A stretch of 37,733 bases of DNA from a virus, in IMG/VR virus record IMGVR_UViG_3300043821_000021. The stretch is one strand, 5' to 3'. Shown here one piece after another: positions 1 through 37,733 of the stretch (the first letter of the stretch is position 1; each line of letters opens with the position of its first letter). The notes under the pieces were generated by a model. The model was given only the letters and a program-made list of their open reading frames with translations, was not told the DNA's origin and did not search any database. The translations under genes were made by a program, and so were the position numbers.

Positions 1-255
1 GGCACGATAGATTCATCATATTGGGAAATCACCGGCCTCTGCATACGGAGATAAAAGGGCCAATAATCTGGCTGCATATAAAGAAAAAATCAGCATGCTT
101 AATCTATCAGATTACTGGAACATACTGAATTAATGAGTATTACGGCTTGTGGCATCGGGACAAAATCGGGACAAAAACGGCCCAAAACCAGCTGATGACA
201 GTAGAAAAGCACATTGATAATGAATAAGTTAGAAAATGATACTCAGGGTGGGCGA
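1..255. repeat. Terminal direct repeat, copy 1 (identical to 37479..37733); indicates a circular genome or assembly overlap
   Basis: The first 255 nt (ggcacgatagattc...actcagggtgggcga) match the last 255 nt base for base. The repeat carries the 3' end of the lipoprotein ORF (1..54) and the 5' end of the integrase ORF. Confidence 0.95.
154..175 (+). repeat. Tandem 11-bp repeat ATCGGGACAAA x2 upstream of the integrase; candidate arm-type or regulatory site
   Basis: atcgggacaaa occurs at 154..164 and again at 165..175, in a non-coding stretch between the lipoprotein gene and int. Confidence 0.5.
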
Positions 256-1554
256 ATCTCGTCCTCTCCGCAAAATCTCTCTAACTCAGATAATATGAGC
301 GAGTTAGAGAGTTGTTCCGAAAAAAACGGGACAGCATCGGGACAGCATTTTTCTTTGTACAGCACCCTCGTGGAGCTGGCCAAAGAAAAAAAAATGTGTT
401 TTTCTCAACCAAAAGCTTACGTGCAATATATACCACCACGGCTCACCAAGGGCAAAGTCTGGTATATCTCATATTACGTACAGAATCCGGAAACCGGGAA
501 GCTCAAAAGATTACGAGTAAAGTTGGATAGGTATCATTCCGTGAAGGAAAAGCTGGCAGCTGCCAGGAACATTTCCGCTGACCTGGAAGAAAAGCTCGCT
601 CTGGGATGGAATCCGATGATAGAGAGCAAAGCTCCGAAAGCATATTCAAAACTATTCAGAGCGCTCGATTCTTTCCTCACTGTCAAAGACAGAGAGCTGG
701 AAGGCAATTCTCTTCGCAGCTATCATTCTTACGTGAAGATCATAAAGCAATGGCTGCTTGCGAATGGATATAAAGAAGATATGCTCGCAGTCTCATTCAC
801 TGACAGAGTGGCGTTATCATTCCTGGATGAGATCGAGCAAACGAAATCTCCTAGAACATACAATAACTATGTAACATTCTATCGGAGTCTCTTTGCCTGG
901 ATGATGGATAAAGGATATATAGCGGCCAATCCTTTCAGCAATCTGAAGAAGAAGCCAAAGCGCCTGACAAAGAAGATCCGGAGAGTGGTCAGCGATCAGG
1001 AACTCATCCGGATAGTCAATTTTCTAAGCAAGGATAATCCGGAATTCCTGGCAATGGCCATGCTTTGCTATTGCTGTTTTCTGAGGCCGAAAGAACTTGT
1101 TATGCTCAAATGTAGGGATATCAGCTTGCGGCAACAGACGATCCATGTGAATGCGAAAATCGCCAAGAATGACAATGAATCATTCAGAACGATTCCTGAT
1201 GAGATAATGCCGCTGATGCAGAGCCTGGACTATTCGCACCCTGACTGGTTCCTTTTCGGAGAGAATATTCAGAACCATAATTTCCATCCGGCACCGAAGC
1301 AAATGAACAGCCGGAAAATTGCGAGATTCTGGGATCGCAGAGTGAGAGCGGAATGCCAACTGCCTATGGATGTGCAATTTTACAGCCTGAAGGATACAGG
1401 AATAACGAATATGCTGAATAAAGGGGTGCCAATCAATATCGTGCAGAAACAGGCAGATCACTCCAGCGTGGCAATTACCTCTCTGTATATTGGCAGAACC
1501 GCCCAAGCAGACGGAGAAATCAAGTCGGCCGACGTGCTGAATCGGAATCAGTAG
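214..1554 (+). CDS. int: Tyrosine recombinase / phage integrase (Bacteroidota phage/CTn type)
   Basis: 446-aa ORF. The N-terminal segment KGKVWYISYYVQNPETGKLKRLRV resembles an arm-type DNA-binding domain, followed by a SAM-like core-binding region. The C-terminal catalytic region contains CFLRPKEL (Arg), HSSVAITSLYIGR (His and Tyr) and LKDTGITNM. The start is uncertain: TTG at 214, ATG at 220, 295 and 394. Confidence 0.9.
   Translation: MIMNKLENDTQGGRISSSPQNLSNSDNMSELESCSEKNGTASGQHFSLYSTLVELAKEKKMCFSQPKAYVQYIPPRLTKGKVWYISYYVQNPETGKLKRLRVKLDRYHSVKEKLAAARNISADLEEKLALGWNPMIESKAPKAYSKLFRALDSFLTVKDRELEGNSLRSYHSYVKIIKQWLLANGYKEDMLAVSFTDRVALSFLDEIEQTKSPRTYNNYVTFYRSLFAWMMDKGYIAANPFSNLKKKPKRLTKKIRRVVSDQELIRIVNFLSKDNPEFLAMAMLCYCCFLRPKELVMLKCRDISLRQQTIHVNAKIAKNDNESFRTIPDEIMPLMQSLDYSHPDWFLFGENIQNHNFHPAPKQMNSRKIARFWDRRVRAECQLPMDVQFYSLKDTGITNMLNKGVPINIVQKQADHSSVAITSLYIGRTAQADGEIKSADVLNRNQ
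327..348 (+). repeat. Tandem 11-bp repeat CGGGACAGCAT x2 (second CGGGACA pair)
   Basis: cgggacagcat occurs at 327..337 and 338..348. It shares the CGGGACA core with the pair at 154..175. It lies inside the longest int ORF but upstream of the alternative ATG at 394. Confidence 0.5.
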
Positions 1555-3070: not shown

Positions 3071-4456
3071 CTAATGCCACGTATTATCATAAGTTGAAAC
3101 AACTAGCCAGCCGCCTCCGATAGTCGAAGAGCCCACTGTTGGGGTCAGGTAATTCGTGCCGACATATATCAGCTCCCATACTTCACCTCCGGCAATCTCT
3201 TTTCTCGTACCATTGATATACAGATGCGTTGAGTTGCTGTCATTTGTGTTAACGACAGTGACCTTCTTGCCTATCTGAATCCCAGTTGTAGCTAACACAT
3301 AATCGACGCTGCTAAGATTTCCGGCGAAAAGAATAACATCCACTGGAAAATATTTGCTATCATCACTTGCAGTGCTATAGAGAGGGATAACTTTAATCGT
3401 ATCGCTCACGCCTGACAGGTTCTGCATCGTATACTGCACACCAGAATATGTCGTTATTTGACCTCTAGTTTTAAAATAAGCGAGGCGTGCACGCACCTCC
3501 ATGCAGTTACGGCCTCTATGCCCAAATTGTGTAGTACACCAGATGTCGCTGGCATAATATCTCACAGGATACATGATGGGAGTCCCATTCTCCATCTCAA
3601 CGTGGGATGCCAGCATCTTCAAATCACCTGTGATATGGAAACGGCCCTCGGAGTCTGCATATAAGTTGTAAGTATAAGAGGTGCCGTTGATATTGACAGT
3701 TGAGGAAAGAGTTGCTCCTTGAAGTATCGCAGACTTAGCTCGGAGCGTTCCATCCTGGTCAATTGTGGCATTATCCCCTACCTTTATTGTGCCTGTAGAT
3801 CCGTCAAGATCGATGGCAGGAACGAAGTCAGCATTCGTATAGTCATCGCTTTCTTCACCGTTAAGCGTGCCATGCGTCGAATAGAGATGGTAGTGCCCAT
3901 CGCTATCCTCTTTGATAAAGAAACCTCCTATCAGTCCGGATGATGCGGAAATCTGGCCCTTGAACGTGCCATCCTCAGCATATACACGGCCATCCGCATC
4001 CACATGGAATTTGGCATCAGTCGGATTAACTGCGCCTACCCAGATAGGATAGTCGCCGCCTCCCAGCCCCACATTTATCGTCGTGCCATCGCTTTTCATT
4101 ACCAGCAGCTGATTGGTCTGAGCAAACCGCAGCACGGCATTGGCGGCAATGATCATCGATGTATAGATGGGATTCATCATATTGTAAGGAGTCCAGTAAC
4201 TCGATCCCTCCTGTGGCTGATTATCCGCACTCGAAGTGTGAGTGATCACGCATTGCCAGGCCGTGAAGGTATTGAGGCCGGTGGTTACTGTTACCACATC
4301 CAGGAACCGTGGACTGGCGACATCTTTGCTGTCGTTATGATACTCCGTGCCTGCCTGCCATTCGGTGATACGTATGATCTGGCCCTCAATGCTGGAGCCA
4401 TCATGACCGTCCTTTGGCCTGCGCCGAATACAGATATGCCCTGATGCCGTTATCAT
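3071..4456 (-). CDS. Tail fibre / receptor-binding-like structural protein
   Basis: 461 aa, rich in Gly/Ser/Thr/Asn beta-type sequence (DADGRVYAEDGTFKGQISASSGLIGGFFI). It lies at the distal end of the tail module just downstream of the DGR. Confidence 0.4.
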   Translation of the reverse strand: MITASGHICIRRRPKDGHDGSSIEGQIIRITEWQAGTEYHNDSKDVASPRFLDVVTVTTGLNTFTAWQCVITHTSSADNQPQEGSSYWTPYNMMNPIYTSMIIAANAVLRFAQTNQLLVMKSDGTTINVGLGGGDYPIWVGAVNPTDAKFHVDADGRVYAEDGTFKGQISASSGLIGGFFIKEDSDGHYHLYSTHGTLNGEESDDYTNADFVPAIDLDGSTGTIKVGDNATIDQDGTLRAKSAILQGATLSSTVNINGTSYTYNLYADSEGRFHITGDLKMLASHVEMENGTPIMYPVRYYASDIWCTTQFGHRGRNCMEVRARLAYFKTRGQITTYSGVQYTMQNLSGVSDTIKVIPLYSTASDDSKYFPVDVILFAGNLSSVDYVLATTGIQIGKKVTVVNTNDSNSTHLYINGTRKEIAGGEVWELIYVGTNYLTPTVGSSTIGGGWLVVSTYDNTWH

Positions 4457-4842
4457 TTCGTAAGCTTTGAAATCTCCGTTACTGCTTTCTTCGCTATCTC
4501 CTTAGCATGGGCCCTCCATGCCTGGAAGCTCTGATATTCGGAGATATATTCAGTGCGTTTTGCATCAGTGATGTCGCTCTCCGTGTCTTTGGCGCTCTCA
4601 TAGTTGGAGATCAGAGCCTGAACATCATCCTGAGAATATCTGTCGTTCACTATGGCGGCAATAAGCTGGCCATATTCCCTGCCTGTGGCATCGACATTCT
4701 CGCAGTCGTGATATGTCTCCGGATCATTTTCCATGGTCTGTTCCTCTTCGCTGAAATCGAAGAAAAGTCTGGTTATGTTACCCTCTAGGATAACCAGCAC
4801 GCCACTCTCTGGCAGCGTCTTGATTGCGTAATTTGATTTCAT
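4453..4842 (-). CDS. Hypothetical acidic protein
   Basis: 129-aa ORF coupled to the next gene by an ATGA overlap. Strongly acidic composition and no recognisable motif. Confidence 0.5.
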   Translation of the reverse strand: MKSNYAIKTLPESGVLVILEGNITRLFFDFSEEEQTMENDPETYHDCENVDATGREYGQLIAAIVNDRYSQDDVQALISNYESAKDTESDITDAKRTEYISEYQSFQAWRAHAKEIAKKAVTEISKLTK

Positions 4843-4853
4843 ATTCTATGGTT

Positions 4854-5447
4854 CTATTCGTCAAAATAATATGCGCTTTTGCCATCACCCAATGGCCTGC
4901 GCCTGATTACCACTCCATCGACCGGAAATATCTTCGTGCCTTTCTGCTCAGCAGCTCTTGCCTTATCAAGAACGTTCTTCAGGTTGAAGGCATTTGTGAT
5001 GAACTTGCTTTTCTGATGATTAGCATCCTCGAAAAGCACGCAATATCTTCCATCGCCTTCCTTAGTCTTGATTCCAGCCTCGAAGTCCAGAACAGTAATA
5101 GGCACATTGAGAATGTCCGTTATCCTCGTGCTCTTCACATCGAAGAACTTCTTGCCATCCTTCGTGAATTGATCCTGATGTATTCCTTTTGAAGCGAAAC
5201 TCATATCATTATTCGTAATTACTCTCCATAAATTTTTACAGTTACCCCACTTGCACCAACCCCAGTAGCTTGCCAATACCTGCCTCCGTCTCTTAGGATT
5301 CTGAATCCTGTGCGATGTCCTGGCGAATTCCTGCTTTATGCTCTTTCTTAGCCGGACTCCATTCGTGGCGAACACATAGCCAAGATAATCAATGCTTCTT
5401 CCTTTTATGGCTACGCTGCCTTTTCCTATGTTTCCTTTTACTTCCAT
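4854..5447 (-). CDS. DGR reverse transcriptase, segment 3 of 3 (thumb plus a C-terminal extension of about 116 aa)
   Basis: RSIDYLGYVF and LASYWGWCKWGN match the thumb region of DGR/group-II-like RTs. The extension after the internal ATG at 5204 has no canonical RT counterpart. This segment is +1 relative to segment 2. Confidence 0.85.
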   Translation of the reverse strand: MEVKGNIGKGSVAIKGRSIDYLGYVFATNGVRLRKSIKQEFARTSHRIQNPKRRRQVLASYWGWCKWGNCKNLWRVITNNDMSFASKGIHQDQFTKDGKKFFDVKSTRITDILNVPITVLDFEAGIKTKEGDGRYCVLFEDANHQKSKFITNAFNLKNVLDKARAAEQKGTKIFPVDGVVIRRRPLGDGKSAYYFDE

Positions 5448-5709
5448 TCACAAACTCACCTATAGGCGCTACAATCACATTTCCTTTAACCACCAGGCCT
5501 GCCTCATCATTGAGCCTAACATATTCATCCAGCATCTGCCACGCCTCGTGTTTCGTCCTGGCCAATCCCACAACATCATCGCAATATCTCAGATAGCACT
5601 TGCACCGGAATTCCTCCTTCATGCGATGGTCAATGTCGCTCACGGAATAATTAGCCAGTGGCTGGCTTGTGTATGCCCCAATAGGCAGCCCTCTTCTGCA
5701 TTTCATCAT
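5389..5709 (-). CDS. DGR reverse transcriptase, segment 2 of 3 (palm: GxxxSQ and YxDD)
   Basis: GLPIGAYTSQPLANY is the DGR-diagnostic [ILV]GxxxSQ motif and YLRYCDDVV is the catalytic YxDD. This segment is +1 relative to segment 1. Confidence 0.9.
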   Translation of the reverse strand: MMKCRRGLPIGAYTSQPLANYSVSDIDHRMKEEFRCKCYLRYCDDVVGLARTKHEAWQMLDEYVRLNDEAGLVVKGNVIVAPIGEFVNGSKRKHRKRQRSHKRKKH

Positions 5710-6280
5710 CTAAAGCCTCTTGTACCTCATCTTCTGAATCATAATTCAAAATCGCAATCTCGATGAGCCGTATGAACTTCTCATCTTTGAACTTTCTCCT
5801 CAATATCTCCAAAAGCTTTTCATGCTGAATGCTCTGATAATATTTCTTGCAGTCGGCCTTCCAGAACCATTTATATTCCGGATAGCGCCTCAGCATCATC
5901 TTCAACCGCCTCACTCCATAATGCAAGCCTTTCCCCGGCACGCATGCGAAAGAATCGGATATGAGTCTGTGATAAATATCCTGCCCAATCACGTTCATAA
6001 TAGCATGATGCAAGATTCGCCACGGATAATACTTCTGAGTTCTGATCTCCCTCACCTTACCATGACGGTCTGAGATCATAAGGCACTTATAGTCAGGGTC
6101 TGGGAAGTTAAGATTGAGAATCATTTCACGCAAAGCAAGAAGATCTTCTTCAGCATGAAGATTATGCCTTCTTATATGCCTGTTTTTCTCAACTTTCCCA
6201 GCCTGAGCCTTTTTGTCAGCCAGTCTCAAATTATCCATGTCTGCAATCTTTTCAAGCAGATAACCTCTTCGTTTTACCAT
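5651..6280 (-). CDS. DGR reverse transcriptase, segment 1 of 3 (N-terminus, fingers, motif A)
   Basis: MVKRRGYLLEKIADMDNLRLADKKAQAGK is an N-terminus typical of DGR RTs. Also present are YPWRILHHAIMNV, SFACVPGKGLHYG, and KADCKKYYQSI (motif A Asp). Confidence 0.9.
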   Translation of the reverse strand: MVKRRGYLLEKIADMDNLRLADKKAQAGKVEKNRHIRRHNLHAEEDLLALREMILNLNFPDPDYKCLMISDRHGKVREIRTQKYYPWRILHHAIMNVIGQDIYHRLISDSFACVPGKGLHYGVRRLKMMLRRYPEYKWFWKADCKKYYQSIQHEKLLEILRRKFKDEKFIRLIEIAILNYDSEDEVQEALDDEMQKRAAYWGIHKPATG

Positions 6281-6482: not shown

Positions 6483-6594
6483 TTGTATGGCGAGAGCCGA
6501 TATTCGCATTCGCATTCGACCAGGCGTTATTCGTATTCGCATAACCGAGACCGGCTAACGAGCCGTTATTCGCATTCCCACCCCACAGCGGAAG
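6483..6594 (-). repeat. DGR template repeat (TR)
   Basis: 112 bp matching VR at 95 of 112 positions. In the VR reading frame it encodes LPLWGGNANNGSLAGLGYANTNNAWSNANANIGSR, with AAT/AAC Asn codons at the variable sites. It lies between the target gene and the RT. Confidence 0.95.
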
Positions 6595-6694: not shown

Positions 6695-7996
6695 TCACAG
6701 GCTTGCGATCAGGTTAGATCCTGACATCCATTGCAGCCTACCATAATAGGCAAGGCGAGAGCCGATAGACGCATGCGCAGCCGACCAGGCGTTAAACGTA
6801 TCCGCATAACCGAGACCGGCCAACGAGCCGCGATTCGCAAACCCACCCCACAGCGGAAGCTGCCCAGTAGCGCTATTATAATTATAATCGCACCAATACG
6901 ATGAAAAATTAGCACCGCCAGTCTTAGCGAATATGTCAAAATATTCTCCCAAAACCAGAGTTTTAGGATACACACTGCTTGTTTGCCTCACTATTTGCCT
7001 ATAAGTGCCATTCGGGTGTGTCGTAAGCTCACTTGAAGTCGGCAATCTGTTACCCTCATAGATAAACACCTCGCTGCCTGTTTGCCCCTCATTAGCTGAC
7101 GATCCGAAATATAAACCTTGCACCATGCACCAATACCAGCACCATGGATCTTCAATGCCGAAGAAGTTTACTCTGCTGGCATCCGTGGTTGAAACATTAT
7201 CAGAATTCGTCAAAGTGATATCTATTTTCCCACAGGAATCGCCTAATGACTTTGTTGCCCCAGTCAGAAGAGCGGAAGCCTGAGTGAAAACGTTTGTTCC
7301 ATAGCCGCTGCCACCTGTTCCATAACCGACATTTGTCTGGCAGTTAGGATTACCAAATTTCGACAAATTCAGCATGATCATCAATCTCTGATGATCGTAG
7401 TTGATAAGGCCGAAATTTTTCCCATTGACCTGCGCCGCATTCCAGAACTGGGTGATAGCCTTGGATGCCGTAACATTAACTCCACTCCTGGAAGTCAGCG
7501 CTGCGCCATTCATATAGCCCATATAAGCGCCGAAACAGCTTTCTTCGATATAATGGCCGCCGATTGGAATCTGGCTCATCCAAAGACAGGTCAGGCCGGA
7601 AATCTCATCGGTCTGAACGAGATAGTAGAGCCGTGGAGCATAGAACATCACATGGCCCTGAGTCTCATCGAGAGCCGTACCGTCTGCGAACACTGAACTA
7701 TCCGTCGCTGAAAGCTTAGCCGCCTTTCCGTCGTTGGTCAGGAAGATCCTGCCTACATGCGACAAATACTCATCCCTCAGAACAGTGTTCCCTACTACGC
7801 CCCATGCCGGAGACGATGATTTCTCCAGAGGCACACCCCATGCCACCTGCTGGAGTAAAGCCTTTTGCCCTTGATTGAGAGCTGCCTGCAGCTCATCCAC
7901 AGTAATCCTGCGTATAGATCCGCCGATCTCCACCAGGATTGAATCGGTGCCCAATATGGTAGTCACCGAATCTACATTACCTAAATTTTTGCTCAT
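6695..7996 (-). CDS. DGR variable (target) protein; tail-fibre/receptor-binding candidate with a C-type-lectin/FGE-like C-terminus
   Basis: 433 aa. VR covers aa 380-416 (LPLWGGFANRGSLAGLGYADTFNAWSAAHASIGSRLA). The WGG...G..G.GY...N.W......G.R pattern is typical of CLec-fold DGR targets. The gene sits in the tail-fibre region. Confidence 0.9.
   Translation of the reverse strand: MSKNLGNVDSVTTILGTDSILVEIGGSIRRITVDELQAALNQGQKALLQQVAWGVPLEKSSSPAWGVVGNTVLRDEYLSHVGRIFLTNDGKAAKLSATDSSVFADGTALDETQGHVMFYAPRLYYLVQTDEISGLTCLWMSQIPIGGHYIEESCFGAYMGYMNGAALTSRSGVNVTASKAITQFWNAAQVNGKNFGLINYDHQRLMIMLNLSKFGNPNCQTNVGYGTGGSGYGTNVFTQASALLTGATKSLGDSCGKIDITLTNSDNVSTTDASRVNFFGIEDPWCWYWCMVQGLYFGSSANEGQTGSEVFIYEGNRLPTSSELTTHPNGTYRQIVRQTSSVYPKTLVLGEYFDIFAKTGGANFSSYWCDYNYNSATGQLPLWGGFANRGSLAGLGYADTFNAWSAAHASIGSRLAYYGRLQWMSGSNLIASL
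6748..6859 (-). repeat. DGR variable repeat (VR)
   Basis: 112 bp at the 3' end of the 6695..7996 gene. All 17 differences from TR are at TR adenines (coding strand). Confidence 0.95.
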
Positions 7997-10743: not shown

Positions 10744-13194
10744 TTATATGATTATATTCGTTTCTACTGATGAATCCTGGAGATTAGCAGTCACTGTGAA
10801 TAGAGTGCTGACAGTCGATGACCGGTTCCCAAGATCATTCTCATCTGCCGTGAAAGCGATGTCGATTTCTCCGGCGAAATTCTTCACTTTATCCTTAAGC
10901 AGCCATGCGGCATCATCGGTCGCATCGCCTGAGTCTCGCTTGATGCTCCATGATTTTACCTGGCTTGTTACATCCTCATAATAGCCTTTCCATACACTGC
11001 ACTTGAGATGAATAGTCTCTCCGTATGCCAGGAAATTGTCATTGTCATGATCTATCTCCAGTCTCAAATCAGCCTCATCAAATTGCTGGATAGTGCCTGA
11101 CATGTATATATTATGGAGATATGCGCTATAGCCTGTCATGTTAAGGCCATAGGTCGAAAGGTTGGAGAGATCTCCGAACTGAGCTGCGATCATGGAGCGA
11201 GTAAACTCCCAATCGTTCACGCCTTTCAAAAATCTCTCGTAAGTCCTGGTGGAATACCGGCTTACCTGCCTATCAGTATTCGTGAAGTTACCATAGGCTA
11301 CAAAGGTCATCGCCTCGCACGGATGGAAGCTGTGCTTCCAGCTGTCAGACTGAGCCCTCAGCTCATACCGGAATTTAGAACACTTTTCGTCAAGAATTTC
11401 AGTTACTCTGAAATAGGCAGTGAAGAAGCCTGAGAATCTGAAGTTGCCCTTGCTGTCATCGAAGTCATCTGCTGAGTTATTGTCGAGAGTCATCCCATCG
11501 TGGAAAATGCCCTCGCAGATATCATCCTCAGCTACTGTCCCGATCTCTCCATCTTCCAGATGAAGCGTTATAACGCCTGTCAGCAGCCGATCTCCGGCCG
11601 CATCTGTGTCAATGGTAACGCTCTCTATCACGCCGCCTCCTGGAGCGTTCCAACGGTTCCCTATCAGCACTGAAACACGGTTATATCTCAGCTCCGGCAC
11701 CTCCAGGAAATGCCTTAGAGTCAGCTGATCCAGTTCCGCTGCGCCATAGCCGTCGATATAGCCGCCCTTACCGGTCAGGCCGCCGACGTAATCGCCGAAT
11801 CTCACGCCTTTCTTGAAGGTGATGATTCCTTGGGCTACATCGTCAACGTCTTTCCTGAGATAGCTGTTGCTGGCTCCTTCCTTCGTCTGGATCTCCTTGC
11901 CGTCATAAGTCAGATTGCCATTCGAGTCGCCAAGCTTATCCAGCACGGCCTTATTCTCATGCGTGTGAGCGTCAATCCATGTGAGAGTCTCTTTATTCCA
12001 TATACCCAGAGATGCCAGAGATACCTTTCTCCATTCATTGGTATATGGAGACTGTACCAGGAATAGGATATCGTCGGAGAGCTCAGCATCAGAAAAGTCG
12101 CTAAGCTTGGCTTTCAAAAAAAAAATCTCTCCGCTAGGAGACGGAACCTCAAGAGAAACGTTCTGGACTGTACTCCGTGGAATTCTCAGCAAGTCACCGT
12201 CTTTGGCCAGCGAAAACTTAAACGTGCAGGCAGTCAGGTTATCCCTATCTGAAAGATTGACAGATGAGTTGTCGATGGTTATCCGCTCAGCATAGCCGTT
12301 CATGATCACCCATGCCCTGTCAGACGCAAGCAGCTCCCACAGCCAGCGAGAGCAAGTCAGGCCCTGATAGCCGGTATTCTGTTGCCATGAGTTGGACGGA
12401 TCAACTGTCAGGTTGATTTTCTCATCATTCTTCTCTGCGGCTTTGTAGGATATATCCGGTGCCTGCTGCATGTCACCGTGGAAAGTGAACGTGTCGATGC
12501 CACCAAGTGAGTTGGCTGCCAGATAGTAATGCTCATCACCCATCGTCGGCACGCAGACGAGCCTCTGAGTGTATGAGCTTCCAGCCGTAAGGTCAACAAC
12601 TCCGTAAATGGCATCAGCCGACAGTCCGGAAAGGCTCAACAGCCTGCTGAATGAGACATTGAATGTCGTGAGGCCGCTAGCGCTGCCGACAGAAACGCTC
12701 TTTGTCGTACCGTCCTTAAGGTAGAATTTAGCCGTGACGCTGCCGGAATAGCATGTGAGATATTCCGGAGAGTTGAATGTGACCTGTTTCGTCTGAGGCT
12801 GCCACGTGAGCCAGTTAGATGAGAGGAACGACGATGCCGAAGTGAGCTTACGCACGCCGCCTTTTATCACCCTGAACGTGGAAACCAGAGTTCCATCAAC
12901 ATAGGCTGTGAAGTCACCCACGGCATGACTCTGAGAGAATGCATTCGATGTAGGTATCTCAAGATAGAGCTCCTGAGCCGCCACTTCCCTCACGTCTATT
13001 TCTATATACCCATTGGCATCAGGCGAATAGGATTCCTCAATCAACGTTTCCGAGCCCTTCATGAGCTTAAACACTACATCTGCGGTGCTCTCAATGATGA
13101 AGCTCCGCATATTCCTCAGAAAATTGATGGAATCAGGACTCTGTGATACTGTTGCCATATTGTTGGAAGCAAAAATACAAACCGGATATATCAA
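10744..13194 (-). CDS. Large tail/baseplate structural protein
   Basis: 816-aa ORF, second gene downstream of the tape measure. It contains a T10 run on the coding strand (A10 on + at 12116..12125). Confidence 0.5.
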   Translation of the reverse strand: MIYPVCIFASNNMATVSQSPDSINFLRNMRSFIIESTADVVFKLMKGSETLIEESYSPDANGYIEIDVREVAAQELYLEIPTSNAFSQSHAVGDFTAYVDGTLVSTFRVIKGGVRKLTSASSFLSSNWLTWQPQTKQVTFNSPEYLTCYSGSVTAKFYLKDGTTKSVSVGSASGLTTFNVSFSRLLSLSGLSADAIYGVVDLTAGSSYTQRLVCVPTMGDEHYYLAANSLGGIDTFTFHGDMQQAPDISYKAAEKNDEKINLTVDPSNSWQQNTGYQGLTCSRWLWELLASDRAWVIMNGYAERITIDNSSVNLSDRDNLTACTFKFSLAKDGDLLRIPRSTVQNVSLEVPSPSGEIFFLKAKLSDFSDAELSDDILFLVQSPYTNEWRKVSLASLGIWNKETLTWIDAHTHENKAVLDKLGDSNGNLTYDGKEIQTKEGASNSYLRKDVDDVAQGIITFKKGVRFGDYVGGLTGKGGYIDGYGAAELDQLTLRHFLEVPELRYNRVSVLIGNRWNAPGGGVIESVTIDTDAAGDRLLTGVITLHLEDGEIGTVAEDDICEGIFHDGMTLDNNSADDFDDSKGNFRFSGFFTAYFRVTEILDEKCSKFRYELRAQSDSWKHSFHPCEAMTFVAYGNFTNTDRQVSRYSTRTYERFLKGVNDWEFTRSMIAAQFGDLSNLSTYGLNMTGYSAYLHNIYMSGTIQQFDEADLRLEIDHDNDNFLAYGETIHLKCSVWKGYYEDVTSQVKSWSIKRDSGDATDDAAWLLKDKVKNFAGEIDIAFTADENDLGNRSSTVSTLFTVTANLQDSSVETNIII

Positions 13195-37067: not shown

Positions 37068-37532
37068 ATGAAAAGAACAATTTTATTAGCGGCAACCTTG
37101 CTGATTCTTGCTGGTTGCTCCGTGATGAAGCCTACAGAAAGGGAAATCACTACCCTCTTTCTAGATTACAGGCCTTACGCCGAACAAGGTTTCTTCCTCA
37201 GCTCAGATCCATATCCAGAAGAGTTCACGTCTTTAGGCGAAATCCAGATTGAAGTATTGCCGGCAATGATACCGAAAGGGAAAATAGCTATCAGGGAACA
37301 ACAAAAATATTCAGATGGCACTTACAATTCCTCTGGGTTTTCACAACTTGTTCCTGAAGATATTTCGGGCTCTGACTTACTTGATATAGCTGTGAGCAAG
37401 GCAAAAGATCTGGGAGCAAATGGCATTGCGAATCTGAAGATAAGATATGTGAAGCAAGGCTATGTGCCAGTCAAAGGAGGCACGATAGATTCATCATATT
37501 GGGAAATCACCGGCCTCTGCATACGGAGATAA
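37068..37532 (+). CDS. Lipoprotein (lysogeny-expressed moron; superinfection-exclusion candidate)
   Basis: Signal peptide with lipobox LLILAGC. 154 aa, located between the repressor and the integrase. The last 54 nt are duplicated at 1..54. Confidence 0.6.
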   Translation: MKRTILLAATLLILAGCSVMKPTEREITTLFLDYRPYAEQGFFLSSDPYPEEFTSLGEIQIEVLPAMIPKGKIAIREQQKYSDGTYNSSGFSQLVPEDISGSDLLDIAVSKAKDLGANGIANLKIRYVKQGYVPVKGGTIDSSYWEITGLCIRR

Positions 37533-37733
37533 AAGGGCCAATAATCTGGCTGCATATAAAGAAAAAATCAGCATGCTTAATCTATCAGATTACTGGAACA
37601 TACTGAATTAATGAGTATTACGGCTTGTGGCATCGGGACAAAATCGGGACAAAAACGGCCCAAAACCAGCTGATGACAGTAGAAAAGCACATTGATAATG
37701 AATAAGTTAGAAAATGATACTCAGGGTGGGCGA
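37479..37733. repeat. Terminal direct repeat, copy 2 (identical to 1..255)
   Basis: Same 255 nt as the window start. The unique genome length is therefore 37,478 bp. Confidence 0.95.

Follow-up and report, generated by a model that had tools for sequence, protein, structure and literature searches.

The 37,733-nt virus sequence IMGVR_UViG_3300043821_000021 from IMG/VR (the whole stretch is called the window below) carries a diversity-generating retroelement (DGR) whose reverse transcriptase (RT) is spread over three overlapping open reading frames (ORFs) on the minus strand. The layout is conserved across a large clade of DGRs from Bacteroidales phages and, with modest confidence, we favour a split RT, made of three separately initiated polypeptides that would assemble with one another, over double +1 frameshifting. 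The three-frame layout itself has already been published: Benler et al. 2021 (Microbiome 9:78, PMC8008677) described it for Quimbyvirus, proposed two programmed frameshifts and reported adenine-specific variation of the variable repeat (VR) among near-identical genomes. The window, whose RT has the three-frame form by which that study characterised the Quimbyvirus type, is a divergent relative (64% amino-acid identity) in another, complete 37.5-kb temperate phage. In the literature searched, no direction, site or mechanism of shifting was given for the three-frame RT, and a split enzyme was not considered.

The RT and its two junctions (J1 and J2) are laid out as follows.

5651..6280, minus strand: RT ORF1 (frame A, 209 aa), the fingers with motifs 1 to 3/A, matched by the RVT_1 and PHROG profiles

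5389..5709, minus strand: RT ORF2 (frame B, 106 aa), with an MMKCR leader, RGLPIGAYTSQ (motif 4/B), YCDD (motif 5/C), motif 6 and a basic tail

4854..5447, minus strand: RT ORF3 (frame C, 197 aa), with a 15-aa unconserved leader, GRSIDYLGYVF (motif 7/E), the thumb and a C-terminal alpha/beta domain of ~110 aa

5651..5709, minus strand: J1, the overlap of ORF1 and ORF2

5704..5709, minus strand: candidate ORF2 start ATG ATG (frame B), abutting TAG 5712..5710 and arising from the frame-A codons GAT GAT GAA

5389..5447, minus strand: J2, the overlap of ORF2 and ORF3

5445..5447, minus strand: candidate ORF3 start ATG (frame C), abutting TGA 5450..5448 and arising from the frame-B codons AAT GGA

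5392..5442, minus strand: the basic C-terminal tail of ORF2, SKRKHRKRQRSHKRKKH, with conserved amino acids and synonymous codon changes among relatives

Read as 6280..5651, 5709..5389 and 5447..4854, the three ORFs occupy one frame each, and their codon phases run from 1 through 0 to 2 (coordinate mod 3), that is, both junctions are +1. The Pfam RVT_1 profile is matched by ORF1 (positions 20-97) and by ORF2 (positions 115-185), and the PHROG 1423 (RT) profile runs collinearly over ORF1 (95-271), ORF2 (283-364) and ORF3 (365-516), so the three ORFs encode successive portions of a single RT. An initial annotation, made from the letters of the window alone, had recognised an intact RT over three minus-strand frames, with two +1 junctions and a stop codon abutted by ATG at each of them, and the coordinates, phases and profiles all agree with it. 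The conserved stretch of ORF1 stops at ...LDDEMQKR, and its final 13 codons, AAYWGIHKPATG*, are motif 4 read out of frame. The catalytic loop YCDD (window 5584-5595) was found clade-wide; the RT of the Bordetella phage DGR (bRT) has YMDD at this place.

A scan of IMG/VR, of metagenomes and of GTDB at one genome per species yielded 188 related loci. The +1/+1 layout was present at homologous positions in 150 of them, far more than chance would give. Clustering of the loci at <=90% amino-acid identity gave 28 clusters, with pairwise identities of 49-90% and a median of 61%. Cultured carriers include B. acidifaciens DSM 15896, B. oleiciplenus YIT 12058, B. intestinalis AF14-32, Paramuribaculum DSM 100749 and a Muribaculaceae isolate. 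When phage records were searched with tblastn, LoVEphage and induced relatives from cultured Phocaeicola and Bacteroides matched in three pieces at 64% identity, and three-frame translation of two LoVEphage-type loci gave the identical two +1 junctions at homologous positions. In each RT segment the ratio of nonsynonymous to synonymous substitution rates (dN/dS) was 0.05-0.16, with dS of 0.5 at the least and up to saturation, even for clusters that neighbour each other, and it is clear that every one of the three frames is under strong purifying selection. Finally, 27 LoVEphage-type loci have three-frame RT DNA that is 100% identical and among them carry 26 distinct VRs, in which 23 of the 24 adenine positions of the template repeat (TR) vary, with the TR itself essentially constant, in agreement with the VR variation reported in PMC8008677. 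The RT is therefore active in its three-frame state.

An ATG in the downstream frame stands at each junction in 28 of 28 clusters. It was seen in 51/51 unique +1 J1 contexts, 5-9 codons before G-x-P-I-G, and in 50/50 unique +1 J2 contexts, 12-22 codons before I-D-F-L-G-Y; the lineages that have only J1 likewise carry it. Each ATG is made by an upstream-frame NAT codon and the G that follows it. The residue encoded by NAT varies (D/N/Y at J1; N/H/D/Y at J2) and the third-position T is invariant. Control NAY columns had a mean T of 0.68 and none of the 21 was all T, and in the NAY|G context T was 0.73; an invariant T over 28 clusters has a p of ~1.5e-4 per site. When synonymous codons were resampled with the upstream protein fixed, an open ATG was kept with p ~0.63 per lineage, giving products over the 28 clusters of 8e-7 (J1) and 2e-6 (J2), all of these p-values being approximate, as the clusters are not phylogenetically independent, although synonymous sites are saturated between them. 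Apart from bases accounted for by amino-acid conservation, nothing in the overlaps is invariant but the ATGs of frames B and C (ATG_B and ATG_C), and each downstream ORF is headed by a conserved ATG, as would be expected of a split gene.

On average, the sequence contexts of these ATGs are also more start-like than those of other ATGs in the RT, but less so than true starts. We built a position weight matrix (PWM) from 67 annotated gene starts of the LoVEphage-type phage PV4-TP1, which recovers an A-rich signal at -13/-14. Across the clade, the mean score was +1.0 for ATG_B and +0.2 for ATG_C, compared with -5.3 for other ATGs of the RT and +3.3 for true starts (p ~1e-10), and the ATG_C of LoVEphage fell at the 99th percentile of internal ATGs. 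The mRNA was least structured around the two ATGs (-3.8 and -5.2 versus -8.5 kcal/mol). In addition, the leaders between each ATG and the first conserved motif are unconserved, and conservation of the upstream frame reaches as far as the hand-off.

In the reading that we favour, the three ORFs would be translated separately, ORF2 from the ATG at 5709 or 5706 and ORF3 from the ATG at 5447, with the N-terminal peptides (M)MKCR... and MEVKGNIGK..., respectively. Non-covalent assembly of these polypeptides would then give a single RT, in which the fingers and motif A would come from piece 1, motif B, motif D, the catalytic loop YCDD and the conserved Arg/Lys-rich tail from piece 2, and the primer grip, the thumb and the C-terminal domain from piece 3. 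Three pieces, each beginning at a stop-ATG, had been the second possibility named in the initial annotation, and with an invariant downstream ATG at both junctions it is the best fit to the comparative data. Whether such a product would be a natural heterotrimeric RT, its palm shared between piece 1 (motif A Asp) and piece 2 (YCDD) and its new middle-piece Arg/Lys tail possibly serving RNA binding or assembly in a DGR that lacks the accessory protein Avd, is in our judgement an evenly balanced proposition.

The predicted position of the breaks suits this reading. An AlphaFold2 model of P0001, a relative with a single-frame RT (predicted local distance difference test, pLDDT, 81), superimposed on bRT (PDB 8ub7) with a template-modelling (TM) score of 0.87. 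In the model, J1 would map to a disordered loop that follows an extra helix, J2 to a beta-hairpin turn, and the C-terminal alpha/beta domain is predicted as a separate unit behind a disordered linker. Both breaks thus appear to fall in surface insertions relative to Bordetella bRT, and breaks at such sites would be compatible with fragment complementation. Comparison with 8ub7 sized the insertions at ~13 aa (J1) and ~18 aa (J2), in line with the proposal of the initial annotation that the junctions coincide with insertions.

Several points weigh against separate translation, besides the approximate nature of the p-values. The separate polypeptides are something we infer from sequence comparison, and a naturally split RT is not described in the literature searched. 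ORF1 overruns the start of ORF2 by 14-64 codons with an out-of-frame tail, no selection for early termination was seen, and internal out-of-frame initiation beneath a translated ORF would be inefficient. The ATG contexts of the window itself are mediocre, scoring -0.2 and -3.1 on the LoVEphage-type PWM, and the start-like scores and the low structure partly reflect purine-rich coding composition. A clean hand-off of conservation is equally expected of a trans-frame fusion protein, and the conserved basic peptide before J2 could be a nascent-peptide stimulator of recoding.

Two programmed +1 frameshifts yielding a single RT of ~475 aa, as proposed by Benler et al. 2021 and in the initial annotation, are a possible but rather doubtful explanation. 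The shifts would take place at about CAG-A-AGA (5698..5692) at J1 and at AAA-A-GGA (5406..5400) at J2, the trans-frame peptides would be ...DDEMQ[K]RGLPIGAYTSQPLANYSVSDIDHR and ...SHKGRSIDYLGYVFATNGVR, and low efficiency at two sites would hold RT levels very low. This is the published interpretation (PMC8008677), and it accords with the overlapping frames and with the way in which amino-acid conservation passes cleanly from one frame to the next at both junctions, the overlap that permits a shift being non-empty in all 150 loci. Purine-rich AAG/AAA followed by AGG/CGG stands at the hand-off in most lineages, and in 20 of the 28 clusters frame B reaches its stop at J2 within the next 4 codons, with the conserved polybasic peptide ahead of it. 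A run of A one nucleotide shorter also yields a plausible fusion, ...ELRKRGVPIG in P0003. In the window, the zero frame at J1 reads CAG AAG AGG G and frame B contains AAA AGG three times (5439..5434, 5424..5419 and 5406..5401), both exactly as quoted in the initial annotation.

The hand-offs can be delimited quite closely. Protein conservation in frame A at J1, [D/N/E]-E-x-x-R/K-K-x-R, extends as far as the invariant frame-B R-G-x-P-I-G, and synonymous changes in frame A (CGG, CGT, CGA) change frame B. At J2, the frame-B basic tail G-K-K-K-R-x-K-R-Q-R-G/S...R-K-K-D/H is conserved with synonymous codon turnover, and frame C is conserved only from G-R-x-I-D-F/Y-L-G-Y onward. Judging from these alignments, a single +1 shift that spares the invariant frame-B Arg-Gly would be confined to positions at or before 5698..5695 (CAG A) at J1, and one that spares both frame-B RKRQRS and frame-C GRSIDY would be confined to 5409..5403 (CAT AAA A) at J2. 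The tail of ORF2 (HRKRQRS...KRKK) strictly co-occurs with J2 and is absent where ORF2 and ORF3 are fused (P0006, P0010, P0082). We also noticed that it resembles arginine-rich RNA-binding motifs.

What argues against frameshifting is that the shift-prone sequence, slowly decoded A-site codon and stimulatory element of programmed +1 sites were not found at these positions. Across lineages, the candidate P-site codon is AAG, AAA, AAT, CAG, TGT or AGT at J1 and AAA, AAG, GGT, AGC, GGC, AAC, AAT, CGC, ATG or CGA at J2, the skipped base varies as widely at both junctions, and position matrices revealed no invariant base and no invariant purine motif upstream of either hand-off. The NGG codon at J2 is AGG in 16 clusters, CGG in 7, GGG in 3 and TGG in 2, the last two making up 5/28. 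As the alignments read, this 'hungry' codon consists of a free base and positions 1 and 2 of the Gly codon in the downstream frame, by which the NGG is fully accounted for. AGG, presumed to be rare in the initial annotation, is the commonest Arg codon of the window (139/515 Arg codons, 27%, counted on the long ORFs of the phage). With AGG common and both the P-site and NGG codons varying between lineages, the hungry-codon +1 slippage put forward there (A-AAA-GG / AAG-AGG) is not supported. The frame-B stop after J2 is missing in 8/28 clusters, the 78 nt that follow each junction yielded no conserved pair in RNAalifold, the window phage has no tRNA able to read four bases, and the two invariant ATGs are left unexplained by frameshifting.

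Other routes between the frames were considered and rejected. A phage-encoded frameshift-suppressor tRNA is ruled out for the window phage, in which no tRNA genes were found. Transcriptional slippage is ruled out by the lack of a homopolymer conserved at either junction (J1 of the window is CAGAAGAGGG). A shift at the J2 stop resembling that of release factor 2 (RF2) is not general, the stop being absent from the 8 clusters mentioned and the P-site codon having to be CAT or GAT. A -2 shift at AGG with re-pairing on AGA fails at J1 wherever the frame-A codon is TGG, AGC or GCG-AGG. Bypass of the overlap is ruled out by the conservation of the frame-B basic tract as protein, and a conserved stimulatory RNA structure was seen at neither junction.

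A mixed mechanism, in which one junction is frameshifted and the other separately initiated, or in which fused and separate products are both used, seems unlikely to us. The histories of the junctions do differ. On a rough neighbour-joining (NJ) tree, single-frame RTs fall outside the clade, the J1-only L107 and the single-frame P0001 (carried by a syntenic 38-kb phage) lie near its base, and three-piece RTs form the crown, with a nested J1-only lineage, L102/L110, that has lost the basic tail. From this order, J1 appears to be older than J2, and re-fusion is possible. J1-only lineages exist (L102-L105, L107 and L110), and the context scores differ between junctions and between lineages. Both junctions nevertheless share one signature, namely an ATG that never varies, a leader without conservation and the lack of a slippery motif, and no positive evidence of differing mechanisms came out of the comparison. 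P0035, at one stage taken as a 'J2-only' lineage, was withdrawn; its locus L106 has an extra frame change upstream of J1 and the fusion is unreliable.

Assembly or sequencing indels and recent pseudogenisation are very improbable: extra indels or deletions do occur in L003/L004, L005, L080/L081, L137, L138, P0002, P0004 and P0005, and from these aberrant contigs it is evident that decay or mis-assembly of the locus can happen, but error is ruled out by identical junction positions in the 150 loci, in 28 clusters down to 49% amino-acid identity and in genomes of cultured isolates, and a pseudogene by the low dN/dS in each frame and the ongoing diversification of VRs in carriers. The initial annotation had likewise thought random sequencing error unlikely, pointing to an A9 run (386..394) and an A10 run (12116..12125) inside long intact ORFs, which we confirmed; recent pseudogenisation, its third possibility, is excluded. 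The non-conforming loci are few, either low-coverage contigs with changes in homopolymer length or deletion derivatives. The A6 run before the ORF3 ATG varies (A5, A7, A8) in the LoVEphage-type contigs L005, L137 and L138; in L005, a 454-era assembly, the variant run joins ORF2 to ORF3, which could be sequencing error or real, slippage-prone variation in the population. In P0002, P0005 and L080/L081, deletion derivatives, the catalytic piece has been lost and ORF1 continues directly into the C-terminal domain. Decayed RT copies thus circulate beside intact ones.

The remaining parts of the cassette lie on either side of the RT.

6489..6594, minus strand: TR of the DGR, a 106-nt repeat

6754..6859, minus strand: VR of the DGR, at the 3' end of the target gene

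6695..7996, minus strand: DGR target gene, 433 aa, a tail protein of family phrog_5302

4453..4842, minus strand: a 129-aa ORF directly downstream of the RT, which may belong to the cassette

The DGR of the window appears to be complete and functional. TR and VR differ at 13 of 106 nt, and 13/13 mismatches are at TR adenines; the VR lies inside the final 250 nt of the tail-protein gene 7996..6695; and the RT has its catalytic motifs, including YCDD, with the DGR enzyme bRT (8ub7) as its best PDB match. Among the ORFs adjoining the RT, profile searches including Pfam and PHROG found no Avd gene. The 129-aa ORF has a syntenic counterpart in every relative examined (119-131 aa in LoVEphage, L102 and L189) and matched no Pfam, PHROG or PDB family; it may be an accessory protein of the DGR and is a candidate substitute for Avd. 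The C-terminal domain of the RT (ORF3 residues 84-195, window 4854-5198) matches phrog_19665, whose members are stand-alone phage proteins of 105 aa and unknown function, and one may speculate that this domain could replace Avd in these Avd-less DGRs. The RT of Hankyphage reaches equally far, over the region of the C-terminal domain. In the collections scanned we found no near-identical genome of the window phage by which the turnover of its own VR could be gauged, the closest RT being that of L006 at ~80% amino-acid identity.

The phage itself has an exact 255-bp direct terminal repeat (window 1-255 = 37479-37733), and the window is therefore a complete 37.5-kb genome, circular or terminally redundant, with 37,478 unique bp and a GC content of 46.9%. 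A tyrosine integrase is encoded at 220-1554 on the plus strand (phrog_1, E 3e-42), with the A9 run inside its intact ORF, and the phage is therefore temperate. Its group consists of relatives on 36-40 kb contigs, and GenBank phages included no near DNA match to the window.

DGRs are, to our knowledge, the only natural systems of targeted protein hypermutation, and phages of the LoVEphage type rank among the most prevalent temperate phages in the human gut. We know of no other characterised RT with the architecture of theirs, and of no published interpretation of the three-frame RT other than two programmed frameshifts. If frameshifting is true, two +1 shifts without a motif in one gene would be a new mode of recoding in Bacteroidota. 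If the split model is true, this would be the first naturally split RT, offering design leads for split, controllable RTs in DGR-based or retron-like engineering. Automated pipelines that call ORF1 alone an RT and the rest hypothetical leave the whole clade systematically mis-annotated. In the GenBank records of LoVEphage (MW660583) and PV4-TP1 (PQ571302), our loci L001 and L002, only ORF1 is annotated as 'reverse transcriptase', ORF2 and ORF3 being hypothetical and ORF2 mis-delimited.

The closest known systems are these two phages and the Quimbyvirus type; Quimbyvirus and LoVEphage share a match, the B. dorei prophage CP011531.1 (~95%). All have, like the window, two +1 junctions at homologous positions. 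The LoVEphage type also shares with it the gene order (tail-protein target with VR, TR, RT and small ORF), an ATG in each downstream frame and the basic tail of ORF2. LoVEphage differs in sharing only 64% amino-acid identity in the RT and in being a 71-kb phage with nine tRNAs, whereas the window phage is a 37.5-kb, integrase-bearing phage without tRNAs. Its annotated ORF1 start is a GTG (L001/L002 2878), ~40 codons upstream of the homologue of the window ATG 6280, and the resulting N-terminal extension MNIGRSDIDW... is absent from the window RT.

The bRT of Bordetella phage BPP-1 (8ub7) has the same fold and motif order as the clade (sequence E-value 8e-16), and its DGR follows the same adenine-specific TR-to-VR logic as the window. 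Unlike the window RT, bRT and the RTs of Hankyphage p00 and of the relatives P0001 and P0008 are encoded by single ORFs. The single-ORF DGR RTs are without the 13-aa and ~18-aa junction insertions and without the basic tail, and bRT has no C-terminal domain and acts together with Avd, a protein not recognised in the window.

Programmed +1 frameshifting is exemplified by prfB (CUU-UGA-C), yeast Ty1 (CUU-AGG-C) and antizyme. The junctions resemble such sites in their +1 geometry, in their purine-rich surroundings and, in many lineages of the clade, in an AGG/CGG or stop codon near the hand-off; the window differs in having no conserved shift heptamer, no P-site codon competent for re-pairing and no conserved stimulator, and in that AGG is common. 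Polymerases made from separately translated pieces are known as well, such as the split gp43 DNA polymerase of some T4-like phages and the split archaeal PolB. As in the split RT that we favour, their fragments are broken at surface loops; in contrast to them, the window has three pieces with out-of-frame overlaps, and the catalytic palm of an RT is divided between them.

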